Source: Staphylococcus phage S6
Sequence record: LC680885.1
Reading direction: 5' to 3' (one strand)
Length of the DNA stretch: 64,000 nt
In this document: in pieces, positions 29,934 to 33,894 of the stretch
How positions within the stretch are numbered: position 1 is the stretch's first letter
Layout: every line of letters begins with the position of its first letter
The notes under the pieces: generated by a model
The model's database searches: none
What the model was told of the DNA's origin: nothing
Seen by the model: only the letters and a program-made list of their open reading frames with translations
Made by a program: the position numbers and the translations under genes

Positions 29934-31614
29934 TTGGAAAAGAAATATATTAGATGTAATTCATGTAGTTCAGTACAAGAATATAGTGAAGATATTACAT
30001 CTTGTTCGGAATGTAGTTCTGAAAATATTTCAGTCATTAAATCTCCTGTTGATTTAGTTAATGAAGCTGAAGTATTAGTTACAGAATCTGAAATGGATTT
30101 CTTATTAGACTATAATGATTATCAAGAATACGATAAAAAAGGCAAATCTTGTTGGTTTGATATATATTTAATTAAGTATCCTAGAGATAATACTCAAATT
30201 AAACATATTGTATTACAGAATCAAAAAGGAAGAGAAGAAGATTTATTAATTGATTACGCTGGAGACGATAAAGGTGGTAATCCTATTGTAATAAATGATA
30301 CAGGAAGTATTAAGACTGTATTAAATGATGTTGATACTTTATCTGAAGTTGTTAAAGTTAGATTCTTAAGTAAAGAATCAACTAAGAGAAGAGGTAAAGA
30401 AGATTTTGGTTTAAATTCAGAAGAATACGTATCATTTAATAAAGATAAATATAATTTTTATAATGATGCTAAATTAAGAACTTTAGTTAAAGTTTTAGAA
30501 TCAATGGGCAACACATTATTCTTAGATAGCAAAAGTGATATTGTATGGAATAAAATATTCACTGAACACAATGTACTTAATTCACCTTTATTTACTTATC
30601 AAGAAGTAATGGATTACAATGAGACTAATCTTTATAAAGAATATGGAGATTATGAATTTGAAGAAAGATTAGAAGACGTTATATACGAATATCAATTAGA
30701 AAATGAAATTGGTGTATTTAATTTCTTATATAATAAAAATAAAGGTAATAAGCCTAAATTTACTGAAGATATGGAAGAAGTATATGCTACAGTAACTCCA
30801 TCTATGTTGTTATCTGATGATTTTAAAATGTCAGAAGATCACGGTAGAATTAATCCGAATGTATTGTCTTTATTATACTTTAAAATATTAGAAAAGAAAT
30901 TAGGTATTAGATCAATTGAATTAGTAACATATGTAAATTCTAATAGAGATGACATAATTCTATTCCCTGTTTCTTATAACGGTCAAGGATATGTATTAGC
31001 TGACTTTAAATTAGACAGTCCTATAGTTTTTAAAAATATGGATGATGTTAATAAATATTGTGCATACCAATTTGGATATGATCAAGAAAATGAAGAAAAT
31101 GAAAATATATTTAAATTCTCAGTTAAAGAAGTACCTGCTGAATTTAATTTCCAAAAAGCTATTTCAAGTAATATGGAAATAATTGAAAGATTCTTTATGA
31201 AATTCAATGAGAATACTTTAAATGAAACTGTATTAGAACCAGAATCAATTTTAAATGAAGCTGTTGGAGATAATAAAAAGAAACGTCAAGAAATACAAAA
31301 TAAAATATTAGACGTTATTTCTTCATTAGACAAAGATCAATCTAATATGAATAAATATAAAACATTCTTTGATGAAATGAATGATGAAGAATTCATGAGA
31401 TATATTAAGAGATTTGTTAATAGTAATGAAAACTTCTACATTGAAGTATTACCTAATAAATCTGAAGCTGGATTTAAAGAAGTTGAAGAAGCTTTAAACA
31501 AACTTGATGTACCTATGAATGAATTTGTTTATTATCGACATGATGGAAATAAAGATGATCCTTTAAGAACTAGATATAAAGTTCCAGTAGGGTATTTGCA
31601 TGTAAAACGTCTAC
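29934..31614 (+). CDS. RNA polymerase beta-subunit-like protein (C-terminal-half homologue), exon 1
   Basis: Ends ...YKVPVGYLHVKRL, matching the bacterial RpoB ...VPVGYMYMLKLNHL block. The ORF track runs 18 codons further into the intron (to 31670) before a stop. Confidence 0.6.
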
Positions 31615-33532
31615 GTGTGAAACGTTACACAAGAAAGACAATGAAGATTGTTGAGGATTGTGTGGCATAATAAATTATGCTAACTTTTTAGTTGAATAAG
31701 CAGTATCTACCTATAAAGATACGATATGCTATTAATAATACTCCCGCATGTATAAAAAGTGATTTTTATATGTGAAGCCGGGTGAAGACACTATATTTTA
31801 ATTATAGTGGTTAGGGAAATGTATATGGTTAGGAACACAAACTATTTATGAATGTCCTTTATATATTAGTATTAAATGTAGACTTAATACTATGATTTAA
31901 TTGATAGGTTATTAAATCTCTTAACGGAATATAAAGGGAACAGATAGAACCTAAGTACATTTATTTACCTAGACTAAAAGGAACGTTTGATATCTCATAA
32001 TTTTTTATGAGAAGTAAGAGAGAATGTAGTACCATTGAAGCTATGATAATAAGTAGTGGAGGGAAAGTTCTTAGTCATAAAAAGCTCTAATCCTTTATGA
32101 ACATTTCTTTATTCTTAGATAAAGGGATGATAACAATGAATAAAGGAAGAACAATACCAAAAGAAGTTTTTGTTGAAAGGTTAAATAATTTAGATGACAT
32201 TGATAAGTATGAATTCCTTATAGAAGATTATAAAGGAGTTACTAAGAAATATACTTTTAAACATACAGAATGTGATCATGAATTTCAAATGACCGGAAAA
32301 AACTTTTTAAATGGACAAAGATGTCCAAAATGTGCTCAAAATAAAAGAAACCAATCAAATGTCTTGGAAGATGAAAAAATAATCAATAGGGTTAAAGATT
32401 TAAATTTTGATATTATTAAATATAATGGTAAGACTCTTAAAAATGATTTTATGTGTAAAAAATGTAATTATGAATTTAATTGCACCTTTAAATTCCTTTT
32501 CTCACAAAAAGAGTGTCCTTACTGTGGACTAAAAAAGGTTGATAAAATCAATAAGAATATCGATAGCTTACAAAGAAAGCTAGATGAAAAAGGATATACT
32601 TTAGATATTATACCAGAGTATTTTAATTATACTAAAAAATCTAAATTCAAATGTAGAAATTGTAATGAGTACCTATTAGAATATTATAATAATATTAAAA
32701 ATTTAAATAAACCTCAGAATTGTAAATGTTTCGTAAAGAAACGATTAAACATGCTTCCAAGTTATAAGAAGAAATTAGAAAAATATGATAGTGATTACAA
32801 AATCTTTGATGAGACTTATATAAACTCTAAAACGCCATGTAAATTTAAACATTTAACTTGTGGTACTGAATTCCAAAAAAGACCGGCTGACTTCTTTTCA
32901 AATAGTCAAAAATGTCCTAAATGCGTTATGATTAATAAGAATAAGTATACAGATAAACAAGTTGAGAATATATTGTCTGATACTATGTTTGAAATTACCG
33001 GAGAATATTTTGGAAGTAAAGAAAAAACTGAGTTTAAATGTATGAATTGTGGACATGATTTCACATCAACTCTGATGTCTATATTAAATGGGAAAAAATG
33101 CGGTAAATGTGATTCTAGAGAAAGTTTAGGAGAATCTAGAATCAACAAATTCCTAGTTGACAACAATATAGATTTTGAAAGAGAAAAGTCATTTGATGGT
33201 TTAGAGTATAAATCTAAATTGAGATTTGATTTCTATGTAAAAGACAAAAACCTTCTTATAGAATTTGATGGAGCACAACATTTTGGTCCTATTGAAATAT
33301 TTGGTGGGGAAGATAGATTTAACGAAGATCAAATAAGAGACAATTTAAAAAATAAATACTGCCAAGATAATAACATTGATCTCCTTAGAATCCCTTATAC
33401 AGATATAAGAAATATTGATAAAATATTAGAGCAGAAATTTTTATGATGGAAAGCCGTATGAGGCGAAAGTCTCACGTACGGTTTGGTGCAGGGGAAAAGA
33501 GGTACGTTTAGTATACTCTTACCTATTGCAAT
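31615..33532 (+). mobile_element. group II intron (~1918 nt) interrupting the rpoB-like gene
   Basis: 5' end GUGUG (GUGYG consensus). Domain V at 33451-33484 is aAGCCGUAUGAGGC-GAAA-GUCUCACGUACGGUUU, a near-perfect match to the group II DV consensus (AGC triad, 2-nt bulge, GNRA loop). Domain VI has lower stem UGCA/UGCA, upper stem AGGUA/UACCU and bulged A33525 seven nt from the 3' end. The intron ends AU. Joining 31614 to 33533 restores the frame and yields HVKRL-QQLLSKKNAYSLD...SNMEASALKAIGA, aligning to RpoB GPYSLVTQQPLGG...[13 protein letters not shown]. Confidence 0.7.
32097..33446 (+). CDS. intron-encoded endonuclease-like protein: five tandem Zn-ribbon (CxxC...CxxC) modules + C-terminal PD-(D/E)xK/DUF559-like nuclease domain (no RT domain)
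   Basis: Five C-x2-C...C-x2-C units (CDHEF..CPKC; CKKCNYEF..CPYC; CRNCNEY..CKC; CKFKHLTCGTEF..CPKC; CMNCGHDF..CGKC), then ...LRFDFYV...LLIEFDGAQHF, typical of Vsr/DUF559-type PD-(D/E)xK endonucleases. It sits in domain IV, ending 4 nt before domain V. Confidence 0.55.
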   Translation: MNISLFLDKGMITMNKGRTIPKEVFVERLNNLDDIDKYEFLIEDYKGVTKKYTFKHTECDHEFQMTGKNFLNGQRCPKCAQNKRNQSNVLEDEKIINRVKDLNFDIIKYNGKTLKNDFMCKKCNYEFNCTFKFLFSQKECPYCGLKKVDKINKNIDSLQRKLDEKGYTLDIIPEYFNYTKKSKFKCRNCNEYLLEYYNNIKNLNKPQNCKCFVKKRLNMLPSYKKKLEKYDSDYKIFDETYINSKTPCKFKHLTCGTEFQKRPADFFSNSQKCPKCVMINKNKYTDKQVENILSDTMFEITGEYFGSKEKTEFKCMNCGHDFTSTLMSILNGKKCGKCDSRESLGESRINKFLVDNNIDFEREKSFDGLEYKSKLRFDFYVKDKNLLIEFDGAQHFGPIEIFGGEDRFNEDQIRDNLKNKYCQDNNIDLLRIPYTDIRNIDKILEQKFL

Positions 33533-33894
33533 AACAATTACTTTCGAAGAAGAATGCATACAGTTTAGATGCTTCAACTAGATCAATGAAGACAGGTCAA
33601 TTAACTTCATCTGACAAAGTGGCAAGTGTATCAAATATGGAAGCTTCTGCATTGAAAGCTATTGGAGCTCAAGATATCTTAAGAGAATTGATGGGTCCAC
33701 GTTCAGACTCTATGAATGCTAAGCAAGAATTAAATAAAAACATCTCTATGTATGGATATTCTCGTTTAGAGGATTTACCAGATGATCTTTCTGATAAGAC
33801 TACATTAAATACTACTTTCTATTATTTACTTGGTGCTGGTATAGAATCTGATTTACTTAAAGACACTAGACCTGATTATGATCAAGAAGAATAA
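33533..33894 (+). CDS. RNA polymerase beta-subunit-like protein, exon 2
   Basis: SNMEASALKAIGAQDILRELMGPRSDSMNAKQELNKNI aligns with RpoB [38 protein letters not shown] (about 15 of 36 identical). The ORF track shows only the 33586..33894 part, from an internal Met. Confidence 0.6.

Follow-up and report, generated by a model that had tools for sequence, protein, structure and literature searches.

The interrupted polymerase gene

We analyzed a 64,000-nucleotide (nt) stretch of the genome of Staphylococcus phage S6 (sequence record LC680885.1), hereafter referred to as the window, in which a gene related to the beta subunit of RNA polymerase (RNAP) is split by a group II intron. All parts of this locus are located on the + strand. 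Exon 1 (29934-31614) opens with a TTG start and comprises 560 codons plus one base, the intron (31615-33532) is 1918 nt in length and sits in codon phase 1, and exon 2 (33533-33894) supplies a further 120 codons and the stop. The intron begins with GUGUG (31615-31619) and ends with AU (33531-33532). From the evidence presented below, it is very probable that a group II intron of IIB-like type, with its structure intact, resides within the gene for the C-terminal fragment of the virion RNAP beta subunit, and that its mobility is driven by a homing endonuclease gene (HEG).

The whole window was scanned with Rfam at gathering thresholds, a check that had been suggested when an earlier inspection of the letters and reading frames of this DNA (the sequence-only reading) proposed a group II intron in an RNAP beta-like gene. 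By this approach, exactly two matches were obtained, both on the + strand and both to parts of group II introns, a class covered in Rfam by RF00029 and clan CL00102. Intron_gpII (RF00029), which covers domains V and VI (D5-D6), matched 33449-33532 over the full model (1-77) with 66.4 bits (E-value 7.4e-11, cut-off 40), and group-II-D1D4-5 matched 31679-31821, upstream of D5-D6 on the same strand, with 44.5 bits (E-value 2.7e-06, cut-off 34.5). No further intron or RNA family was detected at gathering threshold in the 64 kb besides this group II pair. The proposal is upheld by these matches as well as by intronless alleles, a covarying structure, a covarying exon-recognition pairing and a match of the host gene to the family phrog_3233.

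In the list of open reading frames (ORFs) of the window, the frame that opens at 29934 stops 18 codons past 31614 to give a 578-residue ORF (29934-31670), a 102-codon ORF (33586-33894) opens with an ATG at 33586, and a 449-codon ORF (32097-33446) lies in between. When 29934-31614 was joined to 33533-33894, the resulting 2043 nt were in frame and encoded a product of 680 residues. Across the junction (indicated by a slash), this product (...HVKRL/QQLLSKKNAYSLD...) is identical to that of the uninterrupted coding sequences of Staphylococcus phages UFV_DC4 and SA1; the spliced mRNA is predicted to read ...AAACGUCUAC/AACAAUUAC and the protein ...VKRL-QQLL.... The early stop of the unspliced frame and the in-frame splice join had both been noted in the sequence-only reading, as had the GUGUG at 31615, and all three agree with the findings presented here. 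The spliced product aligns end to end with the UFV_DC4 and SA1 proteins, the sole length difference from the UFV_DC4 protein being a 3-residue indel far upstream. Exon 1 is collinear with both coding sequences (98.4% nucleotide identity to UFV_DC4 and 84% to SA1), and exon 2 is 98.9% identical to UFV_DC4 directly after the junction. When compared to the intronless alleles, neither boundary can be moved by one base, as the bases concerned differ at both the 5' site (C/G) and the 3' site (U/A). Thus, the intron is assigned to 31615-33532 because its DNA boundaries are immovable relative to the uninterrupted UFV_DC4 and SA1 genes, and the GUGYG-type 5' end and AY-type 3' end coincide with a junction that these two genes set independently. 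Searched against a phage collection, the region matched solely Staphylococcus jumbo phages.

The intron had also been described as visibly GC-richer than its surroundings. This part of the description holds for D5-D6 (41.7% GC) but not for the 5' ribozyme (29.0%) or the HEG insert (25.9%), compared to 25.3% for exon 1 and 32.9% for exon 2.

The S6 intron was already published in 2025 with the same classification. Merk, Jones and Eddy (Nucleic Acids Research 2025, PMC12350094), who used these Rfam models to survey the genomes of phages, list in their Table S1 an intron of phage S6 (LC680885) at 191615-193532 in 'viral RNA pol beta' and an ORF at 192136-193443 that is typed as HEG, together with class IIB, the model group-II-D1D4-5, the triad AGC and the ends GTGTG/AT. 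All four intron and ORF coordinates equal the window coordinates plus 160000, and the host gene, Rfam model, triad, splice-site bases and ORF type all match those found here. Likewise, the boundaries that we derived for the related intron of PALS_2 (50111-50691) are equal to the Table S1 values. Whereas that table has '-' for the pseudoknot interactions of S6 and PALS_2, a pairing between exon-binding site 1 (EBS1) and intron-binding site 1 (IBS1) was identified here with covariation. Our additions are incremental and consist of this covarying EBS1-IBS1 pairing, the exact boundaries of the HEG insert, homologues at the same site in a metagenomic contig and in a phage of Listeria, support for the nuclease fold that was obtained independently, and an intron hotspot.

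With regard to the host gene, residues 448-669 of the spliced product match phrog_3233 'RNA polymerase beta subunit' (E-value 5.7e-36), and its C-terminal 230 residues match phiR1-37 g203, annotated as structural protein and RNAP beta, as well as phiKZ-like RNAP beta. The orthologue in phage MarsHill is annotated 'viral RNA polymerase beta subunit', and a weak match to Rpb2 domain 7 (Pfam Rpb2_7), below the cut-off, was found in exon 2. According to a review of jumbo-phage RNAPs, the virion beta subunit is encoded by separate genes for its N-terminal and C-terminal fragments. Based on this description and on the phrog_3233 and g203 matches, the product of the gene is taken to be the C-terminal fragment of beta in the packaged RNAP. 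Since the intron splits this gene and the unspliced frame stops, the full-length subunit requires splicing. A second RNAP beta-like gene is located at 48756-50897 (+) and carries Pfam Rpb2 domain 6 (E-value 1.2e-09).

Related introns, ribozyme structure and exon recognition

The same intron, at 92-98% identity, is present in PALS_2 (record positions 50111-50691), where it is 581 nt in length and without an ORF. PALS_2 is collinear with S6 to window position 32083 and again from 33437 on, and a 17-nt loop of domain IV (D4) replaces the S6 sequence in between; compared to this loop, the HEG of S6 is a discrete D4 insert of ~1.35 kb (32084-33437). When the ORF-less intron was used as a query in blastn, a 68.6% identical intron, likewise ORF-less, was detected in Listeria phage LPJP1 (intron 4; locus L018, 1980-1355, - strand) at the same codon position (...VRRL/QQTL...) of the orthologous gene, the host protein being ~41% identical. 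A third ORF-less homologue at the same site (...LRRL/QQML...) was found in the contig IMGVR_UViG_3300043104_000318 (L016; 6667-6151, - strand), with an intron of only 517 nt that is without the two 5'-most hairpins of domain I (D1). LPJP1 intron 1 (locus L007, 2136-1446, - strand) is a related ribozyme of 691 nt that lies in another gene, 20 codons before its stop; it was considered as a same-site homologue and ruled out on account of the different gene, intron 4 being the one at the same site. IMG/VR was also scanned for domain V. None was found with the exact pattern of the subfamily, and a relaxed pattern returned 10 loci, among which only L016 was close and full-length and the rest were c-st-intron-like or domain V only.

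The five introns (S6, PALS_2, LPJP1 introns 4 and 1, and L016) were aligned and a consensus was obtained with RNAalifold, such that the consensus structure was derived from the same five sequences that were later scored for covariation. In this six-domain consensus, 59 of the 140 pairs were changed on both sides across the five introns, compared to 5-13 when the partners were slid by 1-3 columns, and 95% of the cells were paired, compared to 38-48% after sliding. The observed values were reached by none of 500 shuffles. The ORF-less PALS_2 intron by itself was found to fold at z = -5.7 relative to shuffles.

Domain I (31620-31988) is closed by the helix AAACGUU/AACGUUU, as judged by RNAalifold and pair counts. 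It includes an IC1-like hairpin (31743-31782), of which helices 7-8 show 98-100% pairing and include 7 compensatory pairs, and which has a GNRA tetraloop in all five introns (GUGA at 31759-31762 in S6, a candidate for theta). On the 3' strand of this hairpin, an AAGC bulge (31775-31778) corresponds to the epsilon'/lambda signature of IIB introns, for which a 4-nt AARC bulge in this region of IC1 is the criterion used by Merk et al. (2025; PMC12350094). Domain II is a short hairpin (31993-32012; helix 16, 100% paired, 5 of 7 pairs compensatory), and is followed by the joining segment J2/3 (AGUAAGA, 32013-32019) and, immediately downstream, by domain III (32020-32072; helices 17-19). Domain IV (32075-33446) has a basal stem formed by UCAUAAAAA (32075-32083) with UUUUUAUGA (33438-33446) and carries the HEG insert between the two strands. 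Domain V (33451-33484), as aligned to RF00029, contains the AGC triad (33452-33454, its G being part of a G-U wobble), a GAAA loop (33465-33468) and a 2-nt AC bulge, and its helix 20 is 100% paired. In domain VI (33487-33530; helix 21, 100% paired, 4 of 8 pairs compensatory), the putative branch-point adenosine A33525 is bulged, and the corresponding alignment column (731) is a single unpaired A in all five introns. Domain V had been placed at these same positions, with the GAAA loop and a start 4 nt past the ORF stop (33444-33446), by the sequence-only reading, which also correctly recognized the bulged adenosine 7 nt before the last intron base (33532) and the terminal AU. By its AAGC bulge, what would be the catalytic RNA is of an IIB-like structural class.

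Exon recognition was examined in the same five introns. The last 6 nt of exon 1 (GUCUAC, 31609-31614), the candidate IBS1, form a perfect Watson-Crick complement of GUAGAC (31878-31883), which forms part of the loop that caps one of the D1 hairpins and is the unique 6-nt complement of IBS1 in D1. This EBS1 contains the TAGAC that had been pointed out near 31876 as a candidate. In each of the five introns, D1 has a single 6-nt segment that is complementary to the six bases at the end of the adjoining upstream exon, and this segment is located in the same hairpin loop: GUAGGC with GUCUAC in PALS_2 (one G-U pair), GUAGUC with GACUAC in both LPJP1 intron 4 and L016, and CAUUGA with UCAAUG in LPJP1 intron 1, for which a plausible 6-bp EBS2/IBS2 (UAAUCC/GGAUUA) was also noted. 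The predicted EBS1-IBS1 pairing, which covaries with three exon sequences, is well supported.

Other tertiary contacts were assessed in a similar manner. The segments UAUGG (31824-31828) and CCUAAG (31950-31955), which we take to be a canonical (11-nt) receptor for GAAA tetraloops, flank helices 10-11 and are a candidate for the zeta partner of the domain V loop; both halves are invariant in the five introns, and so is the GAAA loop of domain V. A candidate alpha-alpha' contact (31709-31714 with 31904-31909) reads ACCUAU/AUAGGU and is ACCCAU/AUGGGU in L016, which amounts to one compensatory change, and its length was matched in 25-43% of loop shuffles. A candidate gamma base in J2/3 is changed from A to G in L016 (AGUCGGA) together with a change of the last intron base from U to C, again one compensatory change. 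The alpha-alpha' and gamma-gamma' candidates are suggestive only.

The intron-encoded homing endonuclease

The internal ORF, which the sequence-only reading had left unidentified, likely encodes a Vsr/EDxHD-like homing endonuclease with an activity that is predicted from its domains and modeled fold, and not a canonical reverse transcriptase (RT)/maturase. The protein of 436 residues is encoded by 32136-33446 (+). Its likely start is the ATG at 32136, with a Shine-Dalgarno sequence (AAAGGGA, 32121-32127) 8 nt upstream, and the same start is given in Table S1 of Merk et al. The stop codon (33444-33446) falls within the 3' strand of the D4 stem. By eye, five treble-clef zinc-finger modules of ~60 residues each (CxxC...CxxC) can be recognized, followed by a C-terminal domain of ~110 residues. 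Three matches to DUF4379 treble-clef zinc fingers (63.9 bits) were returned by Pfam, and phage endonuclease families were returned by PHROGs (phrog_559 at 2.2e-79), with the HEG of a MarsHill intron placed likewise. No match to an RVT or GIIM (reverse-transcriptase/maturase) domain was detected in the intron ORF, which matched zinc-finger and endonuclease families only. The ORF family was described by Merk et al. (2025; PMC12350094) as having between three and five CapR/DUF4379-like domains in addition to an EDxHD/Vsr-like nuclease, and was called an outgroup. By tblastn, members of the HEG family were found in 509 phage records, mostly of phages of Firmicutes and all at less than 60% identity; the best phage match was 34% identical, and the window contains a single copy.

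To further characterize the nuclease domain, it was aligned with 11 homologues from a large protein database (12 sequences in total). The homologues share the pattern FDF...IEFDGxQH...D..KNKYC...LLRIPY, and D76, E87, D89, H93, D113 and K116 are invariant in the 12-member alignment, the S6 protein retaining all invariant residues. A search of the PDB by sequence with the nuclease domain, either as single sequence or as profile, gave no meaningful match. A single-sequence AlphaFold model of the whole HEG product was unusable (pLDDT 39), and a model of the last finger and nuclease domain was built with the 12-sequence alignment. In this model, as compared by Foldseek, the nuclease domain has the fold of the Vsr-like catalytic domain. 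I-Bth0305I (the founding EDxHD enzyme, PDB 3R3P) and Escherichia coli Vsr (1CW0/1VSR) are 17-21% identical to the S6 nuclease, with no sequence-level match, and differ from the S6 protein, in which the DNA-binding part is a treble-clef zinc-finger array. The phage genome is reported to contain uracil.

Introns of similar composition are known from other jumbo AR9-like phages. In AR9 and PBS1 (and MarsHill), the gene for the N-terminal part of the virion RNAP beta' subunit is interrupted by IIB-like ribozymes (Merk et al. 2025, Fig. 5), with a D1D4-5 match in AR9/PBS1, and their intron-encoded proteins combine, like that of S6, a CapR/DUF4379-like zinc-finger array with a Vsr/EDxHD-like nuclease and no RT. 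These introns differ from the S6 intron in host gene (beta' N-terminal versus beta C-terminal), triad (CGC versus AGC) and 5' ends (GUAUG/GUGCG versus GUGUG), and the S6 HEG, with its five finger modules, is at most ~28% identical to the PBS1 HEGs. Group II introns with LAGLIDADG or GIY-YIG ORFs, found in fungal mitochondria and some bacteria and cited by Merk et al. (2025), likewise have a DNA endonuclease ORF in D4 or domain III instead of an RT and would therefore home at the DNA level, the ribozyme only removing the insert from RNA. By contrast to S6, their nuclease folds are unrelated to the Vsr-like restriction-endonuclease fold, and their hosts are organellar or bacterial rather than phage.

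Mobility and competing explanations

We propose that, in splicing, the 3'-terminal six bases of exon 1 would be bound by EBS1 (31878-31883), A33525 would attack the 5' splice site (31614/31615) through its 2'-OH, and the freed exon 1 would then attack 33532/33533 to generate a lariat and the mRNA for the uninterrupted ...VKRL-QQLL... protein. At the DNA level, the likeliest course is one in the style of group I introns, in which the HEG product would cleave the intronless allele when a relative infects the same cell, and repair by recombination with the intron-plus genome would copy the intron together with flanking exon bases. The HEG was probably acquired separately by domain IV, and the sole role of the ribozyme would be to render the insertion harmless. 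Since the ORF is that of a homing endonuclease and not of an RT, DNA-level homing is likelier than retrohoming. The exon sequences are relevant to this proposal. Exon 1 ends with CGUCUAC in S6 (window 31605-31614) and PALS_2, and with CGACUUC, AGGCUUC or AGACUUC in the intronless UFV_DC4, SA1 and MarsHill alleles. All differences at the end of exon 1 between intron-plus and intronless alleles of Staphylococcus phages are synonymous, and placing the S6 intron unchanged in the UFV_DC4 allele would give two EBS1 mismatches. As judged from these alleles, the synonymous differences would be compatible with co-conversion, with selection for EBS1 pairing or with target-site immunity.

Several observations weigh against a self-sufficient IIB-like intron that is mobilized by its HEG. 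Efficient folding of the RNA in vivo would have to take place with no maturase. By a brute-force search for EBS2-IBS2, many AU-rich complements of 5-7 nt were found, none of which was positionally conserved and clearly looped, a result that is unexpected for a IIB intron; when the distal arm of D1 was folded, the best EBS2 candidates clashed with a helix that is conserved there, and none is convincing. For the C-terminal domain of the HEG product, only sub-threshold matches (DUF5889, DUF2726 and DUF559) were obtained and the Pfam and NCBIfam cut-offs were not reached, the literal EDxHD motif is absent and replaced by IEFDGxQH, and the Foldseek E-values are just ~2e-3.

Among alternative explanations, the element may be immobile and vertically inherited, with a ribozyme that splices and an endonuclease that is inactive or without target, as in a late stage of the homing cycle. 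This would agree with PALS_2, which lost or never had the ORF and has kept the intron at 92-98% identity, with the ORF-less homologous introns that occupy the same site in distant phages, and with the lack of any HEG relative closer than the 34% phage match. We consider it unlikely, however, as the ORF has remained open over 436 codons at a GC content (26%) that is prone to stops, has its own ribosome-binding site and keeps all alignment-invariant residues, and as intronless target alleles circulate in close relatives, the exons of UFV_DC4 being 98% identical.

A free-standing RT of 505 residues is encoded at 7541-9055 (+), ~22 kb upstream in the window (Pfam RVT_1, E-value 8.1e-21), with an N-terminal extension of ~200 residues that is without match. 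It matched the NCBIfam retron St85 model with 139.9 bits (below the cut-off) and PADLOC RT_II-A with an E-value of 2.8e-39, reached 55.8 bits with the model for group II RT/maturases compared to a cut-off of 300, and had no detected maturase domain; by these profile matches it looks retron-like. An RT of unknown function has been reported in MarsHill-like phages by Korn et al. (preprint). An RT of this kind, encoded elsewhere in the phage or in the host, might mobilize the intron by retrohoming in trans, with the zinc-finger/nuclease ORF as a passenger. Consistent with this scenario, the ribozyme persists without a protein of its own in the ORF-less same-site relatives (PALS_2, LPJP1 and L016), trans-mobilization was proposed by Merk et al. 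(2025) for LPJP1, which has one RT-encoding intron, and the 6-bp EBS1-IBS1 pairing is the one that retrohoming would use. Retrohoming in trans is nonetheless highly improbable, given that the sole RT in the window is retron-like and that the intron holds an intact nuclease from a family known in mobile group I introns of the same genes. Moreover, a group II RT normally binds the D4A of the intron to which it belongs and evolves together with that intron, which also counts against such an arrangement.

That the element is a dead, non-splicing relic, such that the gene is expressed as polypeptides of 578 (29934-31670) and 102 (33586-33894) residues, is barely credible: jumbo-phage RNAP subunits are naturally split among several genes, the annotators of PALS_2 and of phage LY01 called two separate ORFs at the locus and an ATG at 33586 opens the shorter frame, but the catalytic features are all intact and kept by compensatory substitutions across lineages with 41%-identical host proteins, and expression from two ORFs would lose a segment of 17 residues (QQLLSKKNAYSLDASTRS) that the intronless homologues conserve and append 18 intron-encoded residues.

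An intron hotspot and its possible meaning

The insertion site of the S6 intron lies in a stretch of ~90 bp in which, from phage to phage, at least four distinct introns of group I or group II are found. MarsHill is without the group II intron and has instead an intron of ~1.3 kb inserted 65 nt downstream in the same gene (locus L003, ~3253-4580; just after window position 33597), with group I Q/R/S core sequences and a HEG (L003, 3510-4469) that is homologous to the S6 HEG (31% identity, E-value 3e-30). In the orthologues of AR9 and PBS1, the break falls at the residue (~582) where that of MarsHill is interrupted, beside homologous HEGs. Madawaska and LY01 each have two inserts of ~140-170 nt with P/Q/R/S group I cores that flank the group II site, at ~3168-3311 and ~3348-3491 of locus L004 in Madawaska, with a micro-exon of ~36 nt in between, and at ~3162-3305 and ~3327-3493 of locus L005 in LY01. 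By their core sequences, the Madawaska and LY01 inserts would be unusually compact group I introns. No group I match was returned by Rfam at E <= 0.1 for the MarsHill, Madawaska and LY01 loci, and the introns were recognized by the P/Q/R/S core sequences.

One reading of this hotspot, which we offer tentatively and regard as doubtful, is that the HEG may serve as a weapon against co-infecting jumbo phages by cutting the RNAP beta gene of relatives that are intronless or have other introns (UFV_DC4, SA1, MarsHill, Madawaska), the hotspot then reflecting an arms race over one essential target. In phage PhiPA3, a group I intron with the HNH endonuclease gp210 resides in an RNAP gene, and its competitive function was shown (Birkholz et al., Science 2024, PMC11620839). 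The S6 and PhiPA3 systems are alike in that a HEG-bearing intron of a self-splicing class interrupts an essential gene for a multisubunit RNAP, and in that both phages are jumbo phages with close relatives that lack the intron. PhiPA3 differs from S6 in having a group I ribozyme and an HNH nuclease and in being a nucleus-forming Pseudomonas phage, and for S6 the competitive role is hypothetical. If true, it would make the S6 intron the group II counterpart of the PhiPA3 system.

Among other genes of the window, the DNA gyrase A gene (26063-29617, +; 1184 residues) contains an intein at ~26414-27535, a second mobile element that is located 4 kb upstream of the intron. The intein edges (...AASRY/CLTGEH... 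and ...GFIHHN/TEMR...) have Cys and His-Asn boundaries that match MarsHill gp228, in which an intein with a LAGLIDADG endonuclease was placed between Y117 and T492 by Korn et al. The gyrase B gene (17056-19335, +) is uninterrupted.

With regard to significance, the replacement of the RT by a homing endonuclease implies that the ribozyme is reused as the splice-out cassette of a DNA-level mobile element. For a long time, phages were believed to have no group II introns. Their rarity in virulent phages, which the sequence-only reading had emphasized, is still true and is no longer news, as Merk et al. (2025) include the S6 intron in their Table S1. The cassette point was likewise made in 2025 with the S6 intron among the examples, so that the finding opens no new question. 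For the phage itself, the intron lies in the very enzyme that must be packaged to start infection.

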